This document shows positions 4,706 through 16,878 of a stretch of 16,878 bases of DNA, in pieces. The stretch spans positions 1-16,878 of the forward strand of contig JANMLN010000062.1 of NCBI GenBank assembly GCA_031372565.1. Direction: 5' to 3'. The position numbers were made by a program, and so were the translations under genes. The notes beneath the pieces were generated by a model, which did no database searches, had not been told where the DNA came from, and saw nothing but the letters and a program-made list of their open reading frames with translations. Numbering within the stretch: position 1 is the first letter of the stretch; each line of letters starts with the position of its first letter. This stretch comes from Gemmatimonadota bacterium (GTDB taxonomy: Bacteria; Gemmatimonadota; Gemmatimonadetes; Gemmatimonadales; Gemmatimonadaceae).

Positions 4706-5356
4706 TCAGCGTGACGACGACTTCATGGCCTCCGCCGTGATGCCGAACGGGAGCGTGGCCTGCGTCTCGTCGCGGCGCGGGACCACGTGACACGCGCGGC
4801 AGCGGGCTTCGTACGACTCGTGGCCGCCCACCATGATGGTCGGCGAATCCCAGTGCGCGGGGCGCCCTTCGATGAGACGCTGGTTCCGGCTGGCAGGACC
4901 GCCGCACAGCACGCAGATCGCGTGCAACTTGTCGACGATCTCCGCCGTGGCCATCAACTGCGGCATCGGCCCGAACGGCTCCCCACGGAAGTCGGTGTCG
5001 GTACCGGCGAGAATCACCCGGCGCCCACGCCCGGCCAGGTCCGCGGCCAGCGCCACGATCCCGGCGTCGAGGAACTGCGCCTCGTCGATCGCGATGACCT
5101 GCGCCATCGGATCGATGCGCTGACTGATCTGCAGCGACGAATCGACCGGAATCGCCTCCGCCGAGCGCCCGTCGTGGCTCGACACGGCGAAGAGACCGGC
5201 GTACCGCTGGTCCAGATGCGACTTGAACAGCTGCACGCGCTTGCGCGCGATCGTGGCGCGCCGCACGCGGCGCAACATCTCCTCGCTCTTGCCGCTGAAC
5301 ATCACGCCGGCCACGACCTCGATCCAACCGCCGGTGATCTGGAAGCTGCCCGACAT
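4706..5356 (-). CDS. tdk: Thymidine kinase (TK1-like)
   Basis: P-loop [31 protein letters not shown], zinc ligands CVLC and CRAC, and lasso region [12 protein letters not shown]. Confidence 0.96.
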
Positions 5357-5359
5357 GCG

Positions 5360-6946
5360 CTACTCTCCGCGTGGCGGCTTCTTGGCTCGGCGCATGGCCT
5401 CGCCACGATCGGCCCACTCTCCGCGGCTTCCCCCCTCGGCCGGTCCGCGCGCATCGCGCACGGGCCCACGCGGGCTCGCACCGTCGCGATCACCGAACTT
5501 GCCACCGCGCGCCGGTCGTGCGCCGCGCTCCCCGCGATCCGCGAACTTGCCGCCGCGCGGCGGGCCGCTGTCGCGCTCGCCGAACTTCCGACCGCGCGGC
5601 GGACCGCTGTCGCGCTCGCCGAACTTGGGGCGTGCCGGTCGATCGCCGCGCGGCGGTCCGTCGCCTCGTGGCGCGCGGTCCGGCCGATCGCTGAACTTGG
5701 GGCGCGAGGGCCGATCACCGCGCGGTGGGCCGTCGCCGCGCGGTGCGCGGTCGGAACGTTCACTGAAGCGCGGACGCGCGGTGCGATCACCACGCTCGGC
5801 GCCCTCGCCCGGAGCGGCGACGGCCGCGACCTTCGCCGCCAATCGCTGCGCGGTCACGAAGGCACGCTCCCGTTCGAGAATGCGGACGGCGGCCGCGGCA
5901 ATCGCGATGCCATCATGCTGGCCGAGCAGCGGCGCAATGACCTGCACCTCCCGGAGCGGCGCACCGGTGGTCAGTTCGCGTTCGAGCTCGCCGCGCAGCA
6001 GCGCATCGCGGCGTCGAATCGTTTCGAGCGGCGTCGGCAGGTCGACCGGCACCAAGGCGCCGCCGGCCAATGCAGCGAGGCGCACGCGCTCGCTCGCCTC
6101 GTGCAGCACGACCAGGCGTACCGGCGAGGTCGCGGCAAGCGTCGCGAGCTGCGCCGCATCGACCGGCAGGGTCCAGCAGACGAGCAATGCGACGTGGTCG
6201 GGGACCGCATCGGTCATGACCACCGCCGCGAGCGGTTCCACGCCGCTCAGTCCAACCGGCGCGAGCGCGCCGCGCGCCTCGCGCGCCTCGGCCTCCGAGG
6301 CGACCACGATGGCCGCGGAGGGCGGGTCGAACGCGTCGAGCAGGGCGCGGAGCGCGGTCGGGCGCGCGCCGGCGCCGACAGTCAGCCCCGACACCGGGAC
6401 CGCCGTCCCGGCGGCAGAGGAGATCGGCTGTTCACGACGCGCCCGACGCAGGTGGCGCTCGGCAAACGACGCCAGCGCCTCCGTCTCGGTTGCGGCCGTC
6501 GCGATCCGCAGCGCCTCAGCGGGCACCTCGGCCAGCAACGCGTCGAGCGAATCGACGTCGCGCTCGAGGAGCACGTCGGCGCCGGCAATCACGACAACGG
6601 CGACGGCGTCGAGCTTGAGCTGCGCGCCTCGCACCAGCGTGGCCACGTCGGTCAACGACGCAGCGACCACCGACGGGGCGGCATGTGCCAGCAAGCGACC
6701 GCCGCGGTGGCTGCTCGTGAACGCCGACAGAATCCCCGGCAACAGCTCCGCTGCCTCGACGCCGAGCGCCGCATCGGGGACGACCACCAGCGCCTGGACA
6801 CCGGCGGTGCCGGCCTGCACGCGCGGGAGGGCCGGAGAGAGCGCGGCCACGACGGTGCGGGCGTCGAGCGGGGCGATATGGAGCACGGGCTGCGCGCGGG
6901 GCGCGGCGGCCGGCGGATCAAGCGGCAAACTGGTCACGGAGGGCAC
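5360..6946 (-). CDS. Degenerate DEAD-box-helicase-like protein (probable pseudoenzyme) with repetitive Arg/Gly/Pro-rich C-terminal tail
   Basis: DEAD domain-1 scaffold is recognisable: QALVVVPD (motif Ia region), LVRGAQLKLDAVAVVVIAGADVLL (motif II position reads AGAD), IATAAT (motif III region), FAERHLRR. No Walker A GKT or HRxGRxGR seen. Stop is 3 nt before the tdk start. The GTG start is uncertain. Confidence 0.7.
   Translation of the reverse strand: MPSVTSLPLDPPAAAPRAQPVLHIAPLDARTVVAALSPALPRVQAGTAGVQALVVVPDAALGVEAAELLPGILSAFTSSHRGGRLLAHAAPSVVAASLTDVATLVRGAQLKLDAVAVVVIAGADVLLERDVDSLDALLAEVPAEALRIATAATETEALASFAERHLRRARREQPISSAAGTAVPVSGLTVGAGARPTALRALLDAFDPPSAAIVVASEAEAREARGALAPVGLSGVEPLAAVVMTDAVPDHVALLVCWTLPVDAAQLATLAATSPVRLVVLHEASERVRLAALAGGALVPVDLPTPLETIRRRDALLRGELERELTTGAPLREVQVIAPLLGQHDGIAIAAAAVRILERERAFVTAQRLAAKVAAVAAPGEGAERGDRTARPRFSERSDRAPRGDGPPRGDRPSRPKFSDRPDRAPRGDGPPRGDRPARPKFGERDSGPPRGRKFGERDSGPPRGGKFADRGERGARPARGGKFGDRDGASPRGPVRDARGPAEGGSRGEWADRGEAMRRAKKPPRGE
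5542..5764 (-). repeat. In-frame tandem repeats: 2 x 39 bp (5542-5619) and 2 x 72 bp (5621-5764)
   Basis: They encode two KFGERDSGPPRG(R/G) units and two 24-aa units of the type S(E/D)R(S/P)DRAPRGDGPPRGDRP(S/A)RPKF. The copies differ mostly at synonymous positions. Confidence 0.9.
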
Positions 6947-7036
6947 GGACGTGAGAAATGGCGCGGCCTTTGCCGCGACGGTAATTTGTCAATCCAGAAA
7001 GGTAGCGCCGTCCCGCCTCTCGCTCCATCCGCCTTG

Positions 7037-8263
7037 ATGACGACCGTCGTCCCGCCCCGCCTGTTTACGCCGTCGGCCAACATCGCCCTGCTGCAGGAAT
7101 CGGCCACGATCGCCGCGTCGGCCCGCGCCAAGGCCCTCAAGGCGCAGGGGAAGCCGATCATCGATCTCGGCGTCGGCGAGCCGGATTTCGACACCCCCGC
7201 CTTCATTCGGGATGCGGCCAAGGCGGCGCTGGACAACGGCGCCACGCGCTACACCGCGACCGAGGGGATCCTGCCGCTTCGGGAGCAGATCGCCCGGCAC
7301 GCCAACAAGCGCAAGGCGGCCGACCTCGCCGATGTCGTGGCCAATGAGGTCGTCGTCGGGGCGGGCACCAAGCAGGCGCTGTTCAACGCCTGCTTTTGCC
7401 TCTTCGGTCCCGGCGACGACGTGCTGGTGCCGACGCCGGCCTGGACGAGCTACTTCGAGATGGTGACACTCTCGCGCGCCAACCCCGTGGCGGTGATGGG
7501 TCGGCCCGAGGACAACCTGCTCACCGACGCCGAGACGCTGGCCCGGGCCGCGACCCCTGCGACCAAGGGGTTGATGATCAACTCGCCGTGCAATCCGACG
7601 GCGGCGGTCTACGACGTGGAGCGCTTTCGCGATATCCTCACGCTCGCGCACGAGCGCGGCTGGTGGGTCGTTTCCGACGAGATCTATCGGCGGTTGTCGT
7701 ACGATTTCCCGGCGGCGTCCGCCCTCGAACTCGCGCCGTCGCGCGAGCGACTGGTCATCGTGGATGGCGTGGCCAAGTCGTACGCCATGACCGGGTGGCG
7801 TATCGGCTGGGCGATCGCGCCACGGCCCGTGGCACATGCGATCGCCAGCTTCCAGTCGCATACCACCTCGAATGCCGCGACCGTGTCGCAACACGCCGCG
7901 CTGGCCGCGCTGACGCGTGACGACCTGGCCGAGCCGGCCATCGACGCCATGATCGCCGAGTTCAAGGTGCGGCGCGACGCCTGCCTGGCGATCCTGGCCG
8001 AGGGACCATCGCCCGCCGTGGTGCACCCGGCCGGCGCCTTCTACCTGTTCCTCGACGTCAGCGGCGCGGCGACTGGCCCCGATGGCGCCGGTGCGGCCTT
8101 CGCCTCCCGTCTGCTCGAGGAACATCACGTGTCGTGCGTGGGAGGGAACGCCTTCGGGGCGCCGGACTACCTCCGCATGTCCACCGCGGCACCGCTCAAG
8201 GACGTGACGGAAGGACTGCGTCGCATCATCGCGCTCTGGCGAGCGGGCACCGGTCAGGCATAG
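7037..8263 (+). CDS. aspC: PLP-dependent aminotransferase class I/II (aspartate aminotransferase-like, 408 aa)
   Basis: 3' part of track ORF 4787..8263. Motifs GVGEPDFDTP, YTATEGILPLR, GAGTKQAL, NSPCNPT, SDEIY, and the PLP-lysine motif DGVAKSYAMTGWRIG. Substrate specificity cannot be determined from sequence alone. Confidence 0.9.
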   Translation: MTTVVPPRLFTPSANIALLQESATIAASARAKALKAQGKPIIDLGVGEPDFDTPAFIRDAAKAALDNGATRYTATEGILPLREQIARHANKRKAADLADVVANEVVVGAGTKQALFNACFCLFGPGDDVLVPTPAWTSYFEMVTLSRANPVAVMGRPEDNLLTDAETLARAATPATKGLMINSPCNPTAAVYDVERFRDILTLAHERGWWVVSDEIYRRLSYDFPAASALELAPSRERLVIVDGVAKSYAMTGWRIGWAIAPRPVAHAIASFQSHTTSNAATVSQHAALAALTRDDLAEPAIDAMIAEFKVRRDACLAILAEGPSPAVVHPAGAFYLFLDVSGAATGPDGAGAAFASRLLEEHHVSCVGGNAFGAPDYLRMSTAAPLKDVTEGLRRIIALWRAGTGQA

Positions 8264-8266
8264 TCG

Positions 8267-8767
8267 ATGGCGCTCGTGGTGCACGTCGAGCCGCGTACCA
8301 AGGCGGCCCCCAAGGCGAAGTACCACTGGGATGCTGACACGGAGATCCTCGCGGTCGACATTGGCAAGGGGGCCGCGCTCGGCGGGCTCACCGGCGGCGT
8401 CGAACTCGAAGGACAGGACGGCTCCTGGCTCCTGCTCGACGCGGAGGCAGGCAATCTCCGCTCGATCGAAGTCGCCGTATGGCCCGAGGTGCGCACCAAC
8501 CCGTCGCTGACGCCGCCAGCCGGGTGTGACGAGGTCACGATCACCATACCGGCACGTCCCTCGCAGCCGGGCATCGCCTCGCTGGAGGTGTCCGCGAGTG
8601 TGCGCGCCGAGGCCGACGCGAAGGAGCAGGTCATCCACTTCGTGCTGCATCCCAGACGAACGCGCACCGTGCGTGTCGCCGATTCCGTGCTCTTCGATCT
8701 CTCCGAGCAGGGCGCCGTGACCGGCGTCTGGCTGTGCAACGTCCCCCCCTTCCCGGGTGCGAAATGA
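8267..8767 (+). CDS. Hypothetical protein, apparently two tandem DUF2283-like beta modules
   Basis: Starts 3 nt after the aspC stop and overlaps the next gene (ATGA). YHWDADTEILAVDI...LLLDAEAGNLRSIEV and ADAKEQVIHFVL...TVRVADSVLFDLSEQGAVTGVWL each resemble the DUF2283 pattern. Confidence 0.65.
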   Translation: MALVVHVEPRTKAAPKAKYHWDADTEILAVDIGKGAALGGLTGGVELEGQDGSWLLLDAEAGNLRSIEVAVWPEVRTNPSLTPPAGCDEVTITIPARPSQPGIASLEVSASVRAEADAKEQVIHFVLHPRRTRTVRVADSVLFDLSEQGAVTGVWLCNVPPFPGAK

Positions 8768-9042
8768 TCACCACCATCGTTCTCGTGAAGGCGCACCCAC
8801 GCAAGGTGCCCGACTGTGCGCGTGCGCTCGCCGGCATCGACGGCGTGCGCGAGGTCTACTCGGTGAGTGGTCCGTGGGACCTGGTCGTGATCGTGCGCGT
8901 GGCGCAGTACGAAGACATCGCGCGTGTCGTGACCGAGGAGTTTCCCAACGTGCCCGGGATCGAGCGCACGCAGACGCTCACCGCCTTCCGCGCCTACAGC
9001 AAGACTGATCTCGAGCAGGCGTGGGACATCGGGCTCGAGTAG
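8764..9042 (+). CDS. Stand-alone Lrp/AsnC ligand-binding (RAM) domain protein without HTH (92 aa)
   Basis: ATG at 8764 overlaps the previous stop. GVREVYSVSGPWDLVVIVRV and PGIERTQTL match the AsnC C-terminal domain. No N-terminal helix-turn-helix. Confidence 0.88.
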   Translation: MITTIVLVKAHPRKVPDCARALAGIDGVREVYSVSGPWDLVVIVRVAQYEDIARVVTEEFPNVPGIERTQTLTAFRAYSKTDLEQAWDIGLE

Positions 9043-9096
9043 CCACGCGATCGGTGAGCGGCGCTCGCCTCGCGTGAGCGCCGTCCGGGGGCGCGC

Positions 9097-10065
9097 GTGA
9101 ACCACTCGGCCGCGTTGGCGGCCGCCAGGCGTGCGCTGGGTGCCGTTCCGGGGGCAGTGGCCGCTCAGGCGGGCGGAGCGCCGCTCGACCTGCCACGAGA
9201 CGCCGGTGACGCGCCACGCCTCGATCGCGCGCCGATCCTCGAGGGCGGTGACGACGCACCACGCACCGTTCCGCCACTGCGTGGTTTCCTCACGCGCGCC
9301 TTCCTCGACGGCGTACAGCGCACGGATCGCGCCGGGTACCTCGGCGCCGCCGTGCCGATCGTGCTGGCCAGCTGCGCGGCGGTGGTGCGCGTGCGCGACG
9401 GCGACGGCCGCCTCCACACGTGGCCGCAGGGGATGGTGCGGCGTGATGCGTACTACGCGCCGCGCGCGCTCTTGTCCAACGAGGCAATCGCCGCCCTCGA
9501 AGCGACCGGGTTCGACGTGCGCGACACGATGCCAGACGCGGGCCGCGCGGCGCTCCACCCACTCTCGCTCGATCGCGCCGCACTGGACCAGGTCCGCACC
9601 GATCGGGCCCAGCTGGAGCGGGCCCTGGCCGACCGATGGACGCGCGAGGGAGACGGGTGGCTCTGGATCGACGGTCCGCTGCCCGGCGACGATGCCAGTC
9701 GTGCCGAGCACCTCTTTGGCGTGGTCAAGAGTCACCGCACCCTCTACGCCGACGGCGATCGGCTCGAGCCCCTGTTTGCCCTTCGTGCGGGCGAGCGGTC
9801 CCGCGTCTTCGCCCTCGAAGCGGCCACACGGGTGCGGGTGGCGAGCTGGTACCTGCGGCTCCGCGACAACGTGGGGCAGGGGCCGCTCTACGGGCTGGTG
9901 CGCATCGAGGCCGCGATCACCGCGGAGGCAGTGGGTACCCGTGCCGACCAGATCTCGGGCCTCGTCCTCGCCGAGCGGCAACCGCTGGCCCGGCCCGACC
10001 CTCGCTGGGATGTGATGGCCTACCCGATTCGTGACGCCGAGGTCGTGCTCAAGGCCCTCCTGTAG
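9097..10065 (+). CDS. nurA: NurA-family nuclease (RNase H-like fold)
   Basis: Acidic motifs AFLDGVQR and LWIDGPL, GVVKSH, SWYLRLR, GLVRIE, and C-terminal DPRW...YPIRDAE. Lies directly upstream of a HerA ATPase. Confidence 0.8.
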   Translation: MNHSAALAAARRALGAVPGAVAAQAGGAPLDLPRDAGDAPRLDRAPILEGGDDAPRTVPPLRGFLTRAFLDGVQRTDRAGYLGAAVPIVLASCAAVVRVRDGDGRLHTWPQGMVRRDAYYAPRALLSNEAIAALEATGFDVRDTMPDAGRAALHPLSLDRAALDQVRTDRAQLERALADRWTREGDGWLWIDGPLPGDDASRAEHLFGVVKSHRTLYADGDRLEPLFALRAGERSRVFALEAATRVRVASWYLRLRDNVGQGPLYGLVRIEAAITAEAVGTRADQISGLVLAERQPLARPDPRWDVMAYPIRDAEVVLKALL

Positions 10066-10090
10066 GGCGTCTCCCCTCGTGGTGGGGCGC

Positions 10091-10096
10091 TAGATT
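10091..10096 (+). promoter_or_regulatory. Putative -10 element (TAGATT) for a leaderless herA transcript
   Basis: TANNNT hexamer in an AT-rich patch ending 7 nt before ATG 10104. No convincing Shine-Dalgarno sequence in between. Confidence 0.4.
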
Positions 10097-10103
10097 TTCC
10101 GGA

Positions 10104-12074
10104 ATGAGCGCCCCCGCCGAGGCGATGGGACCGCTGGGTCGCGTGGTCGCGACCGAGAAGCGGCCAAGCACCCCGCACGAGTTCCACTTCTGGACCGCGC
10201 TCGACGCGCCGGTCGGGATCGGGACGATCGTGCGCGTCGCCGCGACCCATGCGGTCAGCGGCCAACTGCCGGTGGTCTACGGCGTGGTCACCGGCGCGCT
10301 GGCGTGGAGCGACATGGCGTCGCCCCTCGACGACGTGCTCGGCTTCGATGGCGTACCAGGCGCGGTCGCGCAGGCGCCGACGCGGCGTGCCGAGATCCGG
10401 CTGTATACCGCTGCCGTGTTGCGACAGCTGCCCGAAGAGCCGCTGCAGCCCGTCTCGCTCGGCGAGGTCTTCGAGGCCACGGCCGACGACGTGTCGATCG
10501 CGCTGCGCATGGACGGGTATCTGCGCGAGGGCGCGCGCACGGGCATTCCGATCGGCGTGTACCGTGCGGGCGGCACGCGCGCCCCGGTGTGGCTCGACGC
10601 GGATTTCCTCGTAGGCCCCGAAGCGGCACACGTGAACCTGACGGGCATTTCGGGGCTCGCAACCAAGACGAGTGCGGTCGAGTGGTTGATGGGTTCGTTG
10701 TTCGCGCACTTCCCGCAGGACAAGGGCGGGATCGCGGCGGTCTGCTTCAACGTGAAGGGTCCCGACCTGCTCTTCCTCGACCAACCAGGGGAACTGGGCG
10801 ACGACGACCGCGCGATGTACGCCGAGCTGGGCGTGCCGGCCGAACCGTTCCAGCACGTGACGTACTTCGCGCCGTACGGCCCCAAGCGCACCGCGCTCGC
10901 CACGCTGCGCACCAACGAGGCACTGCAGGACAACGTGCAGCCGCTGTCGTGGGGGCTCAAGGAGGTGCTGCAGTTCGCGGAGGTGCTGCTCAATCGCGAC
11001 GACGTGGACGCGAAGGCGGACGCGCTCATCGACTTCATTCGCGAGCGCGTCGTCGAGCAGGTGATGGAAGACCGCGCGCTCTCGCGGCCGCACACGGTGC
11101 GCTCGTTCGCCGACCTCGAGGCGTGGTTCAAGGATCTGCTCAAGGGGTTGGAGGCGGCGAACCAGGACAGCTGGCGCACGCATCACATTGCGACGATCCG
11201 CAAGATCCGCAATCGGCTGGGGAACATCGCGCTGCGCTGCGCCGGACTGGTTGCGGACGAGGGCGAGGCAGCCGACCTGCCGTGGAATGCCTTTGGTGAT
11301 CGGCACGTGTACGTGGTCGACGTGGCCAATCTCGAGGACGACGCGCAGGACCTGATCTTCGCGCGCGTCATCAGCAAGCTGCGCGAACAGTTGGAGCGCG
11401 GTGAGCTGGGGGTCAAGCAGGTGGTGGTGTTCGTGGACGAGCTCAATCGCTACGCCGCCGCTGACGGGCCGGACACGTATGTGCGGCGCATGCTCCTCGA
11501 CATTGCCGAGCGCGGGCGCTACCTCGGCCTCGTGCTGGCCAGCGCGCAGCAGTTCCGTTCGCAGGTGCACCGCCGGATCGTGGGCAACGCGGCCACGTCG
11601 CTGTACGGGCGGATGGACGGTGAAGAGCTGGCGACGCCGGGCTATCAGGTGCTGGCCCCGGCCATCAAGACGCGCCTCAGCACGCTCGACAAGGGGCAGC
11701 TCATGGTGCGGCATCCGCACTTCGCGCAGCCGGTGTTCGTCCGCTTCCCGCGGCCGGCCGTGATGCGCGGGCGCGACGGCATCGCCGCCTTCCCGCCGGT
11801 GGCCGATGCCGGCCTCGAGGAAGCGCTCGTGCGCACGCTGCGGCGGCTCGATGCACGCGTGAGCCTCCAGTGGGCACAGGATCTCGCCGCGCTGCACGAC
11901 GAGAAGGAGCTGCTGGCGATTCGCGACGCCGCGCTGCGCGACCGGACCCCTGATGTCGCCGCCTTCTTTGCGGCGCGCCTCCGCCGAGCGGCGCCCGTGC
12001 GCGATGCGTCCGCGAAGCCCAAGGGGCCGCGCCCGGTGCGGCTCGTGCCCGACGACGACCCGTACGGCGGCTGA
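10104..12074 (+). CDS. herA: HerA/FtsK-superfamily ATPase (HerA helicase/translocase)
   Basis: N-terminal HAS-barrel-like region (LGRVVATE...GIGTIVRV...VYGVV), variant Walker A HVNLTGISGLATKTS, FNVKG, Walker B VVVFVDE, arginine finger ERGRYLG, and motif SAQQ. Confidence 0.9.
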   Translation: MSAPAEAMGPLGRVVATEKRPSTPHEFHFWTALDAPVGIGTIVRVAATHAVSGQLPVVYGVVTGALAWSDMASPLDDVLGFDGVPGAVAQAPTRRAEIRLYTAAVLRQLPEEPLQPVSLGEVFEATADDVSIALRMDGYLREGARTGIPIGVYRAGGTRAPVWLDADFLVGPEAAHVNLTGISGLATKTSAVEWLMGSLFAHFPQDKGGIAAVCFNVKGPDLLFLDQPGELGDDDRAMYAELGVPAEPFQHVTYFAPYGPKRTALATLRTNEALQDNVQPLSWGLKEVLQFAEVLLNRDDVDAKADALIDFIRERVVEQVMEDRALSRPHTVRSFADLEAWFKDLLKGLEAANQDSWRTHHIATIRKIRNRLGNIALRCAGLVADEGEAADLPWNAFGDRHVYVVDVANLEDDAQDLIFARVISKLREQLERGELGVKQVVVFVDELNRYAAADGPDTYVRRMLLDIAERGRYLGLVLASAQQFRSQVHRRIVGNAATSLYGRMDGEELATPGYQVLAPAIKTRLSTLDKGQLMVRHPHFAQPVFVRFPRPAVMRGRDGIAAFPPVADAGLEEALVRTLRRLDARVSLQWAQDLAALHDEKELLAIRDAALRDRTPDVAAFFAARLRRAAPVRDASAKPKGPRPVRLVPDDDPYGG

Positions 12075-13273
12075 TGCGTCTCGTTCACCTGGCCGATCTG
12101 CACCTCGGCTTTCGTCAGTTCCAGCGCGTCACGCCGACGGGCGTCAACCAGCGCGAAGCCGACGTGGCGCTGGCCTTCACGCGCGCGATCGACAAGACCA
12201 TCGCGCTCGCTCCCGACCTCGTGCTCGTGGCCGGCGATGTCTTTCACACCGTGCGCCCGACCAACACCGCCATCCTGCACACGGTACGGCAGGTGCAGCG
12301 GCTGGTGCAGGCGCTGCCGCACGCGCCTGTCGTGATGATCGCCGGCAATCACGATGCGCCACGGTCGAGCGACACGGTGTGCATCCTCACGCTGCTGGCG
12401 CAGTTCGGCGTGACGGTCGTGCATCGCGGCACCGAGCGGGTCGCCTTTCCCGAACACGGGCTGTCGGTGCTCTGCGTGCCGGATGTGCCGCAGGCGGAGC
12501 GGGTGCGGCTCGAGCCCGATCCTGACGCGCGCTTCAACGTGTTGCTGCTGCACGGCGAAGTGCGCGGCGTCATGCCCGGGCACGGCGACGGGACGGATCG
12601 CGCGACCGAGGTGTATGAGGCGGGCGACTTCAGCGCGGCCTGGGATTACGTCGCGCTCGGGCACTACCACGTGTACACGCGCGTCGCGGACAAGGCGTAC
12701 TACGCCGGCGCGCTCGAGTACACGAGCCCGAATGCGTGGGGCGAGCTCCGCGAGGAACGGCGGCAGAAGCTGCCCGGCAAGGGGATCGTCGAGCATGATC
12801 TCGCCACGGGCAAGCACAAGTTCCATCCGATCGAGCCGCCCCGGCGCGTGATCGATCTCGAGCCCGTCTCGGCGCGCGGGCAGAACGCCGAGGCCGTCGA
12901 CACGCTCGTCCGGCAGGCCATCGACCGCGCGCCCGGCGGCATCGACGACAAGGTGGTCCGTCTCGTGGTGCAGGACCTGCCACGCCACGTGGCGCGCGAA
13001 CTCGACTACAAGCAGATCCGGGACTTCAGTCGGCGCGCGCTCCACTTCCAGCTCGACGCGCGTCGCCCGGAACTGCTGCGTACCGGCGAGGCCAGTTCTG
13101 GCGCGCCGGGACGTCGACCCTCGCTCGCCGAAACGCTGCGTGACCGGCTGCTCGCGCGCTCGCTCGAAGTCGGCACCGATCGCGAACGACTCGTGGCCCT
13201 CGGTCTCGAGTACCTGCGGCAGGCCGACGAGATCGCGACGCCGACCGCAGTGGATGGCGAGGAGGTGGGATGA
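12074..13273 (+). CDS. sbcD: Mre11/SbcD metallophosphoesterase nuclease
   Basis: All five phosphoesterase motifs present: HLADLHLG, VAGDVFH, IAGNHD, LLHG, ALGHYH, plus YAGALE. Start overlaps the herA stop (TGATG). Confidence 0.93.
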   Translation: MRLVHLADLHLGFRQFQRVTPTGVNQREADVALAFTRAIDKTIALAPDLVLVAGDVFHTVRPTNTAILHTVRQVQRLVQALPHAPVVMIAGNHDAPRSSDTVCILTLLAQFGVTVVHRGTERVAFPEHGLSVLCVPDVPQAERVRLEPDPDARFNVLLLHGEVRGVMPGHGDGTDRATEVYEAGDFSAAWDYVALGHYHVYTRVADKAYYAGALEYTSPNAWGELREERRQKLPGKGIVEHDLATGKHKFHPIEPPRRVIDLEPVSARGQNAEAVDTLVRQAIDRAPGGIDDKVVRLVVQDLPRHVARELDYKQIRDFSRRALHFQLDARRPELLRTGEASSGAPGRRPSLAETLRDRLLARSLEVGTDRERLVALGLEYLRQADEIATPTAVDGEEVG

Positions 13274-15714
13274 GACTCTCGCGGCTCCGCCTCCAGAACT
13301 TCCGCCAGCATGCGGACTCCACCCTCGACTTCGACGACGGGCTCACGGGCATCATTGGCCCCAATGGCGCGGGCAAGAGCACGATTCTCGAGGCCATCGC
13401 CTGGGCGCTCTACGGCAACGCGGCTGCGCGCGGCACGCGCGACTCGATCCGCTTCTCGCGCGCGGCGCCACGCCAGCCCGTACGCGTTGAACTCGACTTC
13501 GATCTCGCGGGGCAGCGCTATCGGGTGGCCCGTGGCCTGACGAGCGCCGAGCTCTTTCTCGACGGCGCCGAGATCCCGATCGCGAACTCCATCACCACGG
13601 TCAACGAGATCATCCAGCGGCGACTCGGGATGACGCGGGCCGAGTTCTTCAACACGTACTTCACGGGACAGAAGGAACTCGCCGTGATGGCGGCCATGGG
13701 GCCGACCGAACGGGCGCAGTTCCTGTCGCGCGTGCTCGGCTACGAGCGGTTGCGTGCCGCACAGGGACTCGTGCGCGAACGCCGCAAGCTCGTGGTGGCC
13801 GAGATTGCCGGGCTGCGCTCCGGGATGCCCGATCCCGCCATGATCGAGGCCGAAGTGGCGGACGCGGACGCGCGACGGGTTGCCGCCGAGCAGCAGGCGC
13901 AGCGGGCCGAGATGGAGCACGCGCGGCTCGCCGAGGACGTGGCGGCCCTCGCGCCCGACTGGGAACGCGCACAGTCCGAGCGCACGCGCGTGGCCGAGCT
14001 CGCCGCCGAGTTGCGGGTGGCCCAAGGCGATGTGGCCGCGTTGGAGCGCGAACTGACCCGCCTCGACCGCGACCTGGCCGAGATCGCGATCGCGCGCGCG
14101 GAGCTCGACGCGCTCGCGGCGCAGTTGTCGCCACTCGGCGATCTGATGGCGGAGTTCGATCGGCTCGAAGGACTGGCGCGTGAGGAAGGCCGTCGTCAGG
14201 CGCTCGCCGAGACGGTCCGGTCGGTCGACGACGAACTGGTCCGGATGCAGGAACGGTTGACCCGGCTCGAGAGCGCGCCCACGCTCGAGGAAGAGGTGAC
14301 CCTGCAACTGGAGCAGAAGCGGCGCGAAGCCGAAGACGCGCGCGGTGTGCACGATCGCGCGCGCGATGCGTGGGTGCGCGACAAGCAGGAGGCCGACACG
14401 CGGCGGAGTGCGTTGCAGCAGCAGTGGCGCGAGCTCAAGGAGCAGCGCGAGCAGCTCATCGACCTCGGTGAGGAAGGCACCTGTCCGACCTGTCAGCGAC
14501 CACTCGGCACGCACTTTCGGTCGGTGCTCGATCTGCTCAACGGACAGCTCGAGACGGTCACCGTGGACGGCAAGTACTATTTCGGGCGTCTCGAGCAGCT
14601 TGAGGCACCACCGGAAGCGGTGCGCGTGCTCGATGAGCAGCGCAAGTCGCTCGCGAACCAGGCCGGAGCGCTGGAGAAGCGGCTGGCCAAGGTGCAGAGC
14701 GCCGTGCAGGAACTCGCGCAGCTGACCCGCGAGGTCGCCGCCAAGACAGAGCGGCGCCGCCAGCTGGAGGCCGAACTTGCCGCCATTCCGGTCGGATACG
14801 ACGCCGAGCGACACGCGGTGGTCCGGTCGGAGAAGGAGCGGCTCGCGCCTCTCGATGCACTCGCAGCGCGTCTCGGCGCGAGGACGGATCGCGAGCCGCA
14901 GGTCACGCGCGAGCGCGAGCGGGTGCTCGGCCCGCTCGAGGCAGGCCGGATCGCGGTCGCGTCGCTGGTGGCGGGGCAGGCGGCCGCCGTGTTGCCCGAG
15001 GTCGAGTTCGCGGCGCTGCGGGCGCGCTACGACGGCGCGATCGCGAGCACGCGCGCTGCCGAGATGTCGGCGGTCCAGGCGCGGGGGGCAGCGGAAACCG
15101 CGCGCGCGGCGTCGGAGCGGGCAGCGGCCGCGCTGGCCGAATTGGCTGCGACGCAGGAGAAGCTCGACGTGCTGCAACACGACCGACGACTGCACGAGGC
15201 GCTCGACCGCGCCTTCTCCGACCTGCGGACCGATCTCAACGCGCAGTTGCGCCCGGAACTCTCCGAGATCGCGAGCGGTTTCCTGTCGGATCTCACGGAT
15301 GGGCGCTACGCGGAGCTCGAGCTGAACGAGGATTATGCCGTCACGGTGCTCGAGGAAGGGGTGCCCAAGCCGGTCATCTCCGGCGGCGAGGAAGACATCG
15401 CCAACCTGGTGCTGCGGCTGGCGATCTCGCAGATGATTGCCGAGCGATCGGGCCAGAGTTTCTCGCTGCTCATTCTCGACGAAGTGTTCGGGTCGCTCGA
15501 CGATACCCGGCGGTTGCACGTGCTGGGCCTGCTGCGGCGGCTCCACGACCGGTTCGCGCAGGTCATCGTGATCACGCACATTGAGGCGGTGCGCGACGGG
15601 CTCGACCGCGTGCTGGAAGTGCGCTTCGACGAGGAGAAGGGGGCGGCAACGGTGACGACAGGGTCAGGGGGCGCGCTCGCGCTCGTGGTGGCCGGCGCGG
15701 AGGAGGTGGCGTGA
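13270..15714 (+). CDS. sbcC: Rad50/SbcC SMC-like ATPase
   Basis: Walker A GPNGAGKST, Q-loop FTGQ, long coiled coils, central zinc hook CPTC (14482-14493, aa 405-408 of 814), signature ISGGE, Walker B/D-loop LILDEVFGSLD, H-loop ITH. ATGA overlap with sbcD. Confidence 0.95.
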   Translation: MRLSRLRLQNFRQHADSTLDFDDGLTGIIGPNGAGKSTILEAIAWALYGNAAARGTRDSIRFSRAAPRQPVRVELDFDLAGQRYRVARGLTSAELFLDGAEIPIANSITTVNEIIQRRLGMTRAEFFNTYFTGQKELAVMAAMGPTERAQFLSRVLGYERLRAAQGLVRERRKLVVAEIAGLRSGMPDPAMIEAEVADADARRVAAEQQAQRAEMEHARLAEDVAALAPDWERAQSERTRVAELAAELRVAQGDVAALERELTRLDRDLAEIAIARAELDALAAQLSPLGDLMAEFDRLEGLAREEGRRQALAETVRSVDDELVRMQERLTRLESAPTLEEEVTLQLEQKRREAEDARGVHDRARDAWVRDKQEADTRRSALQQQWRELKEQREQLIDLGEEGTCPTCQRPLGTHFRSVLDLLNGQLETVTVDGKYYFGRLEQLEAPPEAVRVLDEQRKSLANQAGALEKRLAKVQSAVQELAQLTREVAAKTERRRQLEAELAAIPVGYDAERHAVVRSEKERLAPLDALAARLGARTDREPQVTRERERVLGPLEAGRIAVASLVAGQAAAVLPEVEFAALRARYDGAIASTRAAEMSAVQARGAAETARAASERAAAALAELAATQEKLDVLQHDRRLHEALDRAFSDLRTDLNAQLRPELSEIASGFLSDLTDGRYAELELNEDYAVTVLEEGVPKPVISGGEEDIANLVLRLAISQMIAERSGQSFSLLILDEVFGSLDDTRRLHVLGLLRRLHDRFAQVIVITHIEAVRDGLDRVLEVRFDEEKGAATVTTGSGGALALVVAGAEEVA

Positions 15715-16682
15715 TGGCCACGCGTCCCGTCCGCGGCCGGATGGCCGATGGCCCGCATCCGATCACCATCGCCGATATCGCACCGCTCAATCAGGTCTTC
15801 AGCGATGCCTTCACGGAGCGCTACCGCCGCGACGGCATGGTCGGGGTGCGTGTGCCCTTCCTGAATCCGCTCATCTGGCGCTACGCCATCGAGGACGCGG
15901 GGACCGGCGCGATGCTCTGGCGTGACGAGCGCGGCGAGATTGCCGCCTTCAACGTGGCGCACATGTCCGGCACCGAAGGGTGGATGGGCCCGCTCGCCGC
16001 GCGACCGGATCTGCAGGGCGCCGGCATCGGCAAGCAGATCGTGACCGCCGGTGTGGAGTGGCTCCGGGCGCATGGGGCCACGACCATCGGGCTGGAGACG
16101 ATGCCGCGCACGCTCGACAACATCGGCTTCTATGCCCGGCTCGGGTTCACCCCGGGAGGTTTGACGCTGACGTTGACGCTCGAGGCGCAGGCGGCCGAGC
16201 GGTCACCGCTGCTGTTGGGGGCACTCACGCCCACCGATCGCGCGGCGATGATCGTGGCGTGTCGCGAGCTCGCGCAGCGCGTGCTGCCCGGCTACGACTT
16301 CACGCGCGAGATCGAGCTCACCGACCAACTCGCGGCCGGGGACACGGTGCTCCTGTGGAGGGACGGGGCCCTGGCCGGCTATGCCCTGTGCCACACCGCG
16401 CCACTGGTGGAAGGTCGCGCGCGCGAGGAGCTGCGCGTGCTGAAGCTCGTGTTGGCGGATGAAGCGGACGTCGGGCGCATGGGGCTCGTGCTCGCCGACT
16501 ATGCGCGGCGGAGCGGGGCGCGACGGGTCGCGTTGCGTGTGCAGGGGAGCTATCCCGGCGTCTTTCGCGCGTTGGTGGCGCAGGGAGCGCGGGTGCGCTG
16601 GAGCGATCTCCGCATGACGCTGGATGGATCGCCGGAGCCACATCCGGATCAGGGCGTCCTGCTGAGCAACTGGGAGATCTAG
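15711..16682 (+). CDS. GNAT-family N-acetyltransferase, probably tandem GNAT
   Basis: Acetyl-CoA motif GPLAARPDLQGAGIGKQI and NIGFYARLGF. The second half (LAGYALCH...LRVLKL...GARRVALR) resembles a degenerate GNAT. Start (GTG 15711 or ATG 15714) overlaps the sbcC stop. Confidence 0.88.
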   Translation: MMATRPVRGRMADGPHPITIADIAPLNQVFSDAFTERYRRDGMVGVRVPFLNPLIWRYAIEDAGTGAMLWRDERGEIAAFNVAHMSGTEGWMGPLAARPDLQGAGIGKQIVTAGVEWLRAHGATTIGLETMPRTLDNIGFYARLGFTPGGLTLTLTLEAQAAERSPLLLGALTPTDRAAMIVACRELAQRVLPGYDFTREIELTDQLAAGDTVLLWRDGALAGYALCHTAPLVEGRAREELRVLKLVLADEADVGRMGLVLADYARRSGARRVALRVQGSYPGVFRALVAQGARVRWSDLRMTLDGSPEPHPDQGVLLSNWEI

Positions 16683-16683
16683 C

Positions 16684-16739
16684 GTCGTCCTGAGCGGAGC
16701 GAAGGACCTGCCTTTACGAAGCGGAACGGGACAAGCAGG
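16684..16739. repeat. REP-like palindromic element; second arm apparently truncated
   Basis: GTCGTCCTGAGCGGAGCGAAGGACCTGC resembles the widespread GTCATCCTGAGCG-AGCGAAGGA-CT intergenic repeat and has an internal GTCCT/AGGAC stem. AAGCAGG at 16733-16739 starts the complementary arm. Confidence 0.65.
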
Positions 16740-16878
16740 GGCGGTCTCACATGGTCAGTGCAACACCTTTCGGACAGTCTACAATCGGAGGTGTTGTGAT
16801 GGGACGATACTGTTCGCGTTTGACGCGGGCCGAGCACGCGGCCGTGTGGGTCCGGTATCGCGCGGGTGAGCCGGTGAG
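16740..16878 (+). mobile_element. Left end of an IS30-family insertion sequence (partial)
   Basis: GGCGGTCTCACATGGTCAGTGCAACACC (16740-16767) matches, from memory, the GGCG...TGCAACA pattern of IS30-family (IS1086-like) ends. It is followed by a GGAGGT RBS and an ORF start. Confidence 0.72.
16799..16878 (+). CDS. IS30-family transposase N-terminus (truncated by window end)
   Basis: ATG at 16799 after GGAGGTG. MGRYCSRLTRAEHAAVWVRYRAGEPV resembles the first HTH (L..E...W.R...G) of IS30 transposases. Only 26 codons are visible. Confidence 0.62.
   Translation, partial: MGRYCSRLTRAEHAAVWVRYRAGEPV

Follow-up and report, generated by a model that had tools for sequence, protein, structure and literature searches.

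In a soil-type Gemmatimonadota bacterium, the genes nurA, herA, mre11 and rad50 follow one another as four co-oriented open reading frames (ORFs) on the forward strand, between positions 9097 and 15714 of the window, i.e., the entire 16,878-base contig (C136) analysed here. The genome to which it belongs comprises 4.44 Mb in 201 contigs and is 95.85% complete. The cluster is probably a chromosomal, vertically inherited operon for DNA-end processing, which works beside an AddAB-like enzyme and RecJ and which carries a translationally coupled GNAT acetyltransferase gene at its end. This reading rests on the linkage of the four genes across the phylum, on the junctions between them and on the assignment of their products to known families.

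Organization of the cluster

The original prediction described four contiguous, co-oriented genes with intact motifs, and the ORFs are indeed found at these positions, with complete HerA, Mre11 and Rad50 motifs and with NurA recognized by its fold. Together with the gene that follows rad50, the cluster reads:

9097..10065, + strand: nurA, NurA-type RNase H-like nuclease (322 amino acids (aa), GTG start; PDB profile and fold match)
10104..12074, + strand: herA, HerA translocase ATPase of the bacterial (Deinococcus) type (656 aa; phmmer against PDB 7f6d_B)
12074..13273, + strand: mre11/sbcD, Mre11-type metallophosphoesterase nuclease (399 aa; Pfam Metallophos, motifs I-V)
13270..15714, + strand: rad50/sbcC, Rad50-type SMC-like ATPase (814 aa; Pfam SMC_N, AAA_23 and SbcC_Walker_B)
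15711..16682, + strand: gene for an acetyltransferase of the tandem-GNAT type (323 aa, with GTG as start codon; Pfam Acetyltransf_1 and fold)

The gap between nurA and herA is 38 nucleotides (nt) in the window, with a median of about 45 nt among relatives. The overlaps of stop and start codons already noticed along herA-sbcD-sbcC amount to 1 nt between herA and mre11 (TGATG) and 4 nt between mre11 and rad50, and the GNAT start likewise shares 4 nt with the rad50 stop codon. Given these overlaps, a roughly balanced co-expression of the genes is expected. A scan of positions 8000-16878 returned no promoter-like and no terminator-like site, although the sigma-70 consensus that it used may not apply to this phylum. 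The GC content is unremarkable, with 0.67-0.74 over the cluster against 0.64-0.76 over the window.

NurA and HerA

The two halves of the cluster behave differently in profile searches, in that the HMM searches originally proposed for the cluster yield Pfam matches for Mre11 and Rad50, whereas NurA and HerA are unmatched in Pfam and were identified through the PDB and by fold. For NurA, no Pfam family was returned even at E <= 10, no NCBIfam family at E <= 1 and no PHROGs family. Compared alone with PDB sequences, it matches the NurA of Deinococcus radiodurans (7f6d_H) with an E-value of 0.005. A wide search yielded 345 relatives and, among the matches listed (120 of the 345), those bearing a name are all called 'hypothetical protein' and none has a precomputed Pfam domain. 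A family profile of 52 sequences reaches D. radiodurans NurA (7f6d_H) at E 2.6e-05 and TM1739 at E 0.027. The AlphaFold2 model calculated from a 52-sequence alignment has a mean predicted local distance difference test score (pLDDT) of 90.6 and a pTM of 0.89, and the structures that Foldseek ranks highest are D. radiodurans NurA (7f6d_G, E 2e-13) and TM1739 (1zup, 5e-12, TMt 0.67-0.69). The NurA proteins of Sulfolobus solfataricus (2ygk, 7.7e-07) and Thermococcus kodakarensis (9x1n_G, 6.9e-04) were also retrieved, as was chain 8wfd_G of the TdpAB complex (E 9e-05). From the predicted structure, we are confident that the first gene specifies an RNase H-like NurA fold, as originally proposed.

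Three NurA motifs are defined in section 5 of a 2026 review (PMC13748450), the first two of which each contain a conserved 'DG'. Both are present in the window:

9307..9312, + strand: NurA motif I 'DG' (D71 G72, in AFLDG), invariant in 52/52 family members
9670..9675, + strand: NurA motif II 'DG' (D192 G193, in LWIDG), invariant in 52/52 family members

Motif III, given in the same review as LxxAHxxx(A/V)(R/H/K) near the C-terminus, is absent in this form. At the corresponding place, which was located by eye without a structural alignment, the window reads IRDAEVVLKA and the family consensus IRDCEEFLRA, with E315 (at least 90% conserved) replacing the archaeal His. That review itself describes the bacterial homologues of NurA as having degenerate active-site motifs.

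HerA has no Pfam match even at E <= 10 and no usable match in PHROGs, and it obtains 14.3 bits from the archaeal HerA model NF040937 (HerA_Thermprot), for which the cut-off is 800. By contrast, D. radiodurans HerA (PDB 7f6d_B) is matched by phmmer with E 2.4e-41 and 145 bits, residues 5-312 and 402-562 aligning to residues 9-320 and 445-603 of 7f6d_B, i.e., over nearly the full length, with the N-terminal (HAS) region and the RecA-like core included. Because of the 14 bits on the archaeal model against 145 bits for the D. radiodurans protein, HerA was placed in the Deinococcus-type branch; judged by sequence and, for NurA, by fold, both HerA and NurA belong to this bacterial branch and not to the archaeal one. 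The ATPase motifs and the C-terminal tip of HerA can be located as follows:

10644..10673, + strand: HerA deviant Walker A GISGLATKTS (G181-S190), aligned with GISGVATKTS of D. radiodurans
11421..11441, + strand: HerA Walker B VVVFVDE (D445 E446), where VVVFVDELN aligns with VLDELN of D. radiodurans HerA
12045..12071, + strand: HerA acidic-aromatic C-terminal tip VPDDDPYGG, following a variable Pro/Ala-rich linker

Across 46 orthologues, G181 and S183-S190 of the Walker A motif are invariant, as is the Walker B motif, whose mutation in D. radiodurans HerA (E487A/E488A) was reported to abolish ATPase activity (PMC9960219).

The C-terminal tip of HerA, ending in DDPYG(F/G), is retained in nearly all of the 74 orthologue tails listed. 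In the 46 sequences, P653 and Y654 do not vary, and conservation reaches 90% or more at P649, D651 and D652. Elsewhere the tips read DPFxGL in a more distant family of the phylum (f7) and DDDIPPF in Nonomuraea. The tip resembles the end of SSB (the protein that binds single-stranded DNA) of the same genome (L099), which reads EEDDDLPF. These features raise the idea that the tip may be a partner-docking peptide. A tentative use of the tail as a mark of linkage to Mre11-Rad50 was rejected, since the HerA of D. radiodurans, which is unlinked, also has an acidic DEVDDLGG segment; its sequence continues as ...RDEVDDLGGK plus 11 further residues. Hence an acidic tail is a general feature of bacterial HerA. 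Judged by their listings, none of the papers returned by a literature search on HerA, NurA and SSB-type C-terminal tails deals with a HerA tail.

Mre11 and Rad50

Mre11 matches Pfam Metallophos above the cut-off (4.1e-11) and contains all the phosphoesterase motifs, namely DxH, GDxxH, GNHD, H160 and GHYH. The corresponding residues (D8/H10, G54-D55..H58, G91-N92-H93-D94, H160 and G196-H197..H199) are conserved across 46 sequences. In NCBIfam, the best model is Mre11_Sulfo with 83.6 bits against a cut-off of 500, and sbcd (TIGR00619) gives 72.1 bits against 77.65. Because no curated SbcD or Mre11 cut-off is reached, the protein is classified, from its sequence scores, as a divergent member of the wider Mre11/SbcD family.

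Rad50 matches SMC_N (3e-22, residues 3-789), AAA_23 (5.3e-20) and SbcC_Walker_B (1.2e-06) in Pfam, the last two above their cut-offs. The motifs of the split ABC-type head comprise the Walker A GPNGAGKST, the Q-loop (Q134), the signature SGGE, the Walker B LLILDE and the H-loop (H770), and a hook motif lies between the two parts of the head:

14482..14493, + strand: Rad50 zinc hook CPTC (C405-C408), showing no variation at C405, P406 or C408 in 46 sequences

The best NCBIfam model of Rad50 is that of archaeal Rad50 (PRK03918) with 191 bits, against 98 bits for sbcc. With 814 aa, the protein is short and of archaeal-like length, while the Rad50 of family f7 has 1052 aa. By these scores neither Mre11 nor Rad50 is typical of bacteria, and all the scores on archaeal models fall far under the respective cut-offs of 500-1087 bits.

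In the Atlas, every one of the nearest look-alike clusters of Rad50 comes from bacteria (Gemmatimonadota, Zixibacteriota, Chloroflexota and Acidobacteriota), and for 10 Mre11 relatives that were looked up the sole organism name is Armatimonadota. A recent archaeal origin of Mre11-Rad50 was considered and is not supported, the Atlas neighbours and the named cluster being bacterial.

Conservation of the linkage across the Gemmatimonadota

A scan of species-representative genomes found 486 relatives of HerA. The best 79 of these 486 loci were retained (64-92% identity; 78 from Gemmatimonadota and one recorded only as 'bacterium'), and linkage was scored by tblastn of the window proteins against them. 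The four genes occur together in 61/79 loci, and the loci lacking one or another gene are cut by contig ends. Where the sequence extends at least 1.3 kb upstream and at least 5 kb downstream of herA, so that the locus can be evaluated, all four genes are present in 48/48 cases and share a single strand in each. The synteny with relatives extends to the AsnC-like gene upstream and to the GNAT gene downstream. The arrangement is thus not confined to one genome, in line with the synteny across the phylum that had been put forward as a test.

HerA was detected in 147/201 genomes sampled from the phylum, including 33/38 in the family of the window and 92/96 in its sister family (125/134 for these two nearest families together). 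Three of the matching genomes (G157, G182 and G057) are flagged as unpublished, and without these the counts become 144/198, 32/37 and 90/94, respectively. In family f7, 18/23 genomes have HerA, with an identity of about 33-35%. With the window protein as query, HerA was found in 0/11 genomes of family f6 and in 0/13 of family f10.

Eight loci from distant families were compared with the window, with HerA identities of about 30-35% in six and about 60% in two. The herA, mre11 and rad50 genes lie together in 7/8, the eighth contig stopping at herA, and NurA was detected in 6/8. The gene order is herA-mre11-rad50-...-nurA in four of them and nurA-herA-mre11-rad50 in one; in the f7 locus L087, about 0.9 kb separate rad50 from nurA. 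A linkage that outlasts rearrangement at about 30% HerA identity is good evidence for selection on co-location. Taken with the 48/48 linkage, the syntenic flanks and the unremarkable GC content, this indicates a long residence and selection for linkage, and the suggestion that the cluster is no recent island holds.

The GNAT gene and the DUF6263 insert

The product of the gene following rad50 matches Acetyltransf_1 in Pfam (1.3e-14) over residues 59-146 only, and no PDB sequence was matched at E <= 0.001. Its AlphaFold2 model (pLDDT 92.3) resembles tandem GNAT proteins, including 3tt2 (6e-14), 3ddd (TMt 0.77), MshD and MAB_4324. The gene follows rad50 in 44/46 loci with enough sequence, and in 52/53 loci a candidate GNAT start either overlaps with the stop codon of rad50 or is no more than 12 nt away. 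The GNAT gene was not found by tblastn in the distant-family loci, nor is it seen beside the clusters of other phyla. In this gene order it forms a conserved fifth member of the string.

In the window herA abuts mre11, which is a minority arrangement found in 9/71 related loci. In most Gemmatimonadaceae relatives (62/71 loci), the two are separated by a gene about 0.84-1.47 kb long, which encodes an exported protein of the DUF6263 type (about 270-300 aa) with a weak to borderline Pfam match; examples are L015 9968-10849, L032 9803-10816 and L044 9730-10746.

Other DNA repair genes in the genome

Two large ORFs with PD-(D/E)XK domains are adjacent on another contig of the genome and form an AddA-like/AddB-like pair:

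G000:C64:56459-62813 (L084 1459-7813), - strand: AddA-like (1215 aa) and AddB-like (1047 aa) genes, overlapping by 437 nt as called in L084

The AddA-like protein obtains 183 bits from addA_alphas and 171 from recB, and the AddB-like protein 61 bits, all below the curated cut-offs. As these scores are far under the AddA, AddB and RecB cut-offs, the pair is described as a divergent helicase-nuclease pair. RecJ (579 aa) scores 490 bits, above its cut-off. Within the 95.85% complete genome, neither Ku nor a second Mre11 or HerA was found, and the other Rad50-like match is just a weak N-terminal one in a 1165-aa frame. The proposed check for other resection and end-joining genes thus returned an AddAB-like pair and RecJ but not Ku. 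From these searches, the cluster encodes the genome's only SbcCD-type complex, yet it is not the only route to resected ends. Because the AddAB-like pair and RecJ are present, the cluster would add to the canonical bacterial resection and not replace it.

Comparison with known systems

The closest characterized relative is the NurA-HerA complex of D. radiodurans (7f6d, 7wrw, 7wrx; PMC9960219), which has the same Walker A pattern GISGxATKTS and a similar Walker B. Its NurA is the best match of the window NurA in both sequence and fold, albeit with an identity of only about 19%. In both organisms nurA lies directly upstream of herA, and the two HerA proteins have a short acidic C-terminal segment in common. 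However, in D. radiodurans nurA-herA is described as a two-gene operon unlinked to sbcCD (PMC4663267), whereas the pair of the window is joined to mre11-rad50-GNAT. In addition, D. radiodurans is reported to be devoid of RecBCD (PMC4663267), while the genome studied here has an AddAB-like pair.

The archaeal herA-mre11-rad50-nurA operon of Sulfolobales, Pyrococcus and Thermococcus (PMC13748450) contains the same four families, co-oriented and tightly packed. Both archaea and Gemmatimonadota keep the linkage despite lineage-specific gene orders, and the window Rad50 is of archaeal-like length and has a CxxC hook. The order of the window, nurA-herA-mre11-rad50, differs from the archaeal one, although the distant family f7 shows the herA-mre11-rad50-nurA order of Sulfolobales given in that review. 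The archaeal systems are further set apart by their HerA and NurA, which are of another branch than the bacterial proteins of the window, the S. solfataricus and T. kodakarensis NurA being weaker fold matches than the bacterial ones, and by the His of motif III, replaced here by Glu. Furthermore, the host of the window has AddAB-like proteins and RecJ, as well as the extra coupled GNAT gene.

A four-gene architecture is already known in bacteria. In Oceanithermus profundus, sbcD and sbcC were reported downstream of nurA-hepA and read as an archaeal-like architecture for double-strand break repair (Blesa et al. 2017, PMC5448004), so that similar bacterial clusters had, as was suspected from the start, been noted in print. 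As in the window, the pair is followed by sbcD and sbcC, but the organism belongs to another phylum (Deinococcota); this comparison uses the published description. A tblastn search of HerA against a plasmid collection matched six records, and the gene contexts of four were inspected:

Streptomyces sp. BB1-1-1 (plasmid): herA-sbcD-SMC-hypothetical
Sphaerospermopsis NIES-73 (plasmid, cyanobacterium): hypothetical-herA-sbcD-sbcC
Ca. Chlorohelix (plasmid, Chloroflexota): hypothetical-herA-sbcD-SMC
Nonomuraea gerenzanensis: herA-mre11-rad50-nurA (by tblastn)

The HerA homologues in these records are 26-32% identical to that of the window. The 'hypothetical' proteins of about 330-345 aa were compared with the NurA profile by hhalign, which gave match probabilities of 97.9%, 89.3% and 97.8% for the three. 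In the other three phyla, the nucleases linked to the cluster are SbcD proteins of the ordinary bacterial kind (108-193 bits, above the cut-off), in contrast to the sub-threshold score of the window SbcD, and their SbcC proteins are long (1006-1117 aa, 144-285 bits on sbcc) compared with the 814 aa of the window Rad50. Moreover, these clusters sit on plasmids or have ImmA/IrrE, TIR or transposase genes as neighbours, and none has a GNAT gene after sbcC. A literature search on NurA and HerA in Gemmatimonadota found no paper on the present cluster. The Gemmatimonadota string is hence a known architecture with lineage-specific variants, which are the coupled tandem GNAT, the 814-aa Rad50 and the conserved HerA tip DDPYG.

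In the Streptomyces and Chlorohelix plasmids, a gene for an ImmA/IrrE-family metallopeptidase lies directly upstream of herA or nurA (L096 5141-6313 and L098 5092-5826), and no gene of this family is found beside the window cluster. In Deinococcus, the response to radiation and desiccation is under the control of IrrE/DdrO-type pairs. By analogy, the two plasmid clusters may be damage-induced.

Flanking regions

Two ORFs located at 8267-9042, on the same strand, end 54 nt before nurA and are syntenic in most relatives. One (166 aa) is without annotation and the other is a 102-aa Lrp/AsnC protein, consisting of the ligand-binding (RAM) domain only, without the helix-turn-helix domain. In this sub-clade, both might share a transcript with the cluster. 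Further upstream, a 1158-aa open frame (4787-8263) has an aspartate-aminotransferase-like domain confined to residues ~760-1148. Its residues 1-190 and 740-1158 match separate places in relatives, suggesting that two genes are probably joined here by an open high-GC frame; the GC content reaches 0.757 at 5501-6500. Between 1017 and 4627, two large ORFs with a prepilin N-terminal methylation motif (N_methyl, above the Pfam cut-off) and a PilX_N match below the cut-off appear to encode proteins of the type IV pilus or pseudopilin-like kind. Downstream, the contig ends 196 nt beyond the GNAT gene, and a further frame, whose ATG at 16799 follows a GGAGG-like site, continues past the end of the contig (16799-16878).

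Proposed function and alternative explanations

By analogy with the systems described above, we infer the enzymatic activities of the products, a contact between HerA-NurA and Mre11-Rad50, a role in repair and any role of the GNAT protein. By homology, Mre11-Rad50, as the sole SbcCD-type complex, would recognize, tether and nick or clear DNA ends. A HerA hexamer with a NurA dimer would then thread and degrade the duplex, which was demonstrated for D. radiodurans NurA-HerA and for archaeal complexes. The outcome would be processed ends for RecA-dependent repair, and the cluster would work alongside the AddAB-like enzyme and RecJ, not instead of them. A precedent for the coupling of the two halves is provided by Sulfolobus, in which Mre11 interacts with HerA (PMC2288612, PMC4663267). 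The view that this lineage may run an archaeal-like resection machine as a core pathway is therefore retained in part, as the tight and conserved four-gene cluster agrees with it, whereas the Deinococcus-type HerA and NurA and the presence of an AddAB-like pair and RecJ do not.

Several observations weigh against a joint role in end processing. Since E315 stands in place of the His of motif III, the catalytic competence of NurA is not certain. Since a DUF6263 gene lies between the two halves in most related loci, their tight coupling is not universal. Given the AddAB-like proteins and RecJ, a role in resection may be redundant or specialized. The nurA-herA genes of D. radiodurans and Thermus work without genetic linkage to sbcCD (PMC4663267, PMC5448004). 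Finally, according to the 2026 review, the main activity of bacterial NurA-HerA is the degradation of foreign DNA, and the resection model is questioned by a 2026 study of T. kodakarensis (both PMC13748450).

The independence of the D. radiodurans and Thermus modules, in which NurA-HerA is active alone, would also fit two separate modules on one transcript, co-located only for co-regulation after DNA damage and without physical or mechanistic coupling. For example, SbcCD would cleave hairpins or palindromes while NurA-HerA processes forks or ends. The unrelated DUF6263 gene in 62/71 loci and the gap between rad50 and nurA at L087 are as expected from such an arrangement. Nevertheless, we judge it rather unlikely, as the halves are linked in 48/48 evaluable loci, as their linkage outlasts a change of order at about 30% HerA identity, as the same four genes are linked in archaea and, among bacteria, in four further records that represent three phyla, and as herA and mre11 overlap in the window. 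A reading in the opposite direction is a regulated machine of five parts in Gemmatimonadales, in which the HerA tip, carried on a flexible linker, docks a partner (e.g., Mre11-Rad50, RecJ or another SSB-tail binder) and the coupled GNAT acetylates a component, switching end processing on or off. This elaboration is distinctly unlikely. If true, it would represent a bacterial coupling of HerA-NurA with Mre11-Rad50 for which no archaeal counterpart is described.

A role in anti-phage or anti-plasmid defence, with HerA-NurA as motor-nuclease and the SMC-like protein as sensor degrading foreign linear DNA, as in HerA-based systems and TdpAB, is improbable. It is suggested by weak or partial PADLOC matches (HerA to mad8, 9.8e-09; Rad50 to mad3, 1.5e-35, and to LmuB, 6.3e-32), by the fold match of NurA to the TdpAB chain, by the defence role asserted for bacterial NurA-HerA in the 2026 review (PMC13748450) and by plasmid-borne relatives in Streptomyces, cyanobacteria and Chlorohelix, two of which lie beside TIR, transposase or other defence-like genes. 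However, no PADLOC system (MADS, Lamassu, Gabija, Septu and others) has its full signature genes here. NurA is without a PADLOC match, Mre11 has marginal ones only, and the matches of the SMC head are generic, with 158 PADLOC families matching Rad50. Neither a methyltransferase nor further MADS or Lamassu parts nor genes of mobile elements occur in the flanks. The cluster is, moreover, single-copy, occupies the same chromosomal place between housekeeping flanks in all evaluable loci and contains the genome's only Mre11-Rad50, and HerA occurs in 125/134 genomes sampled from the two nearest families, a distribution that fits a core gene and not a patchy defence island. A recent horizontal transfer of a true archaeal operon is more improbable by far. 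The length of Rad50 and the preference of Rad50 (191 vs 98 bits) and Mre11 (83.6 vs 72.1 bits) for archaeal over sbcC and sbcD models would agree with it, but these archaeal scores do not approach their cut-offs, HerA and NurA are of bacterial type, and the nearest Rad50 clusters and the one named Mre11 relative are bacterial. In addition, the GC content equals that of the surroundings and the cluster is phylum-wide with conserved flanks.

Significance

An operon for DNA-end processing thus remains the probable function of the cluster, and it adds a whole bacterial phylum with stably linked NurA-HerA and Mre11-Rad50 genes, thereby correcting the statement that bacteria lack a stable four-gene linkage. 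Current family models entirely miss the bacterial branches of NurA and HerA. The general picture of DNA end resection is unchanged and the importance of the finding is moderate. With its cultivable relatives, the lineage is a mesophilic bacterial setting for genetic tests of the cooperation between HerA-NurA and Mre11-Rad50, with an AddAB-like enzyme for comparison, and concrete, testable handles exist in the tandem GNAT coupled to rad50 and in the conserved tail of HerA.

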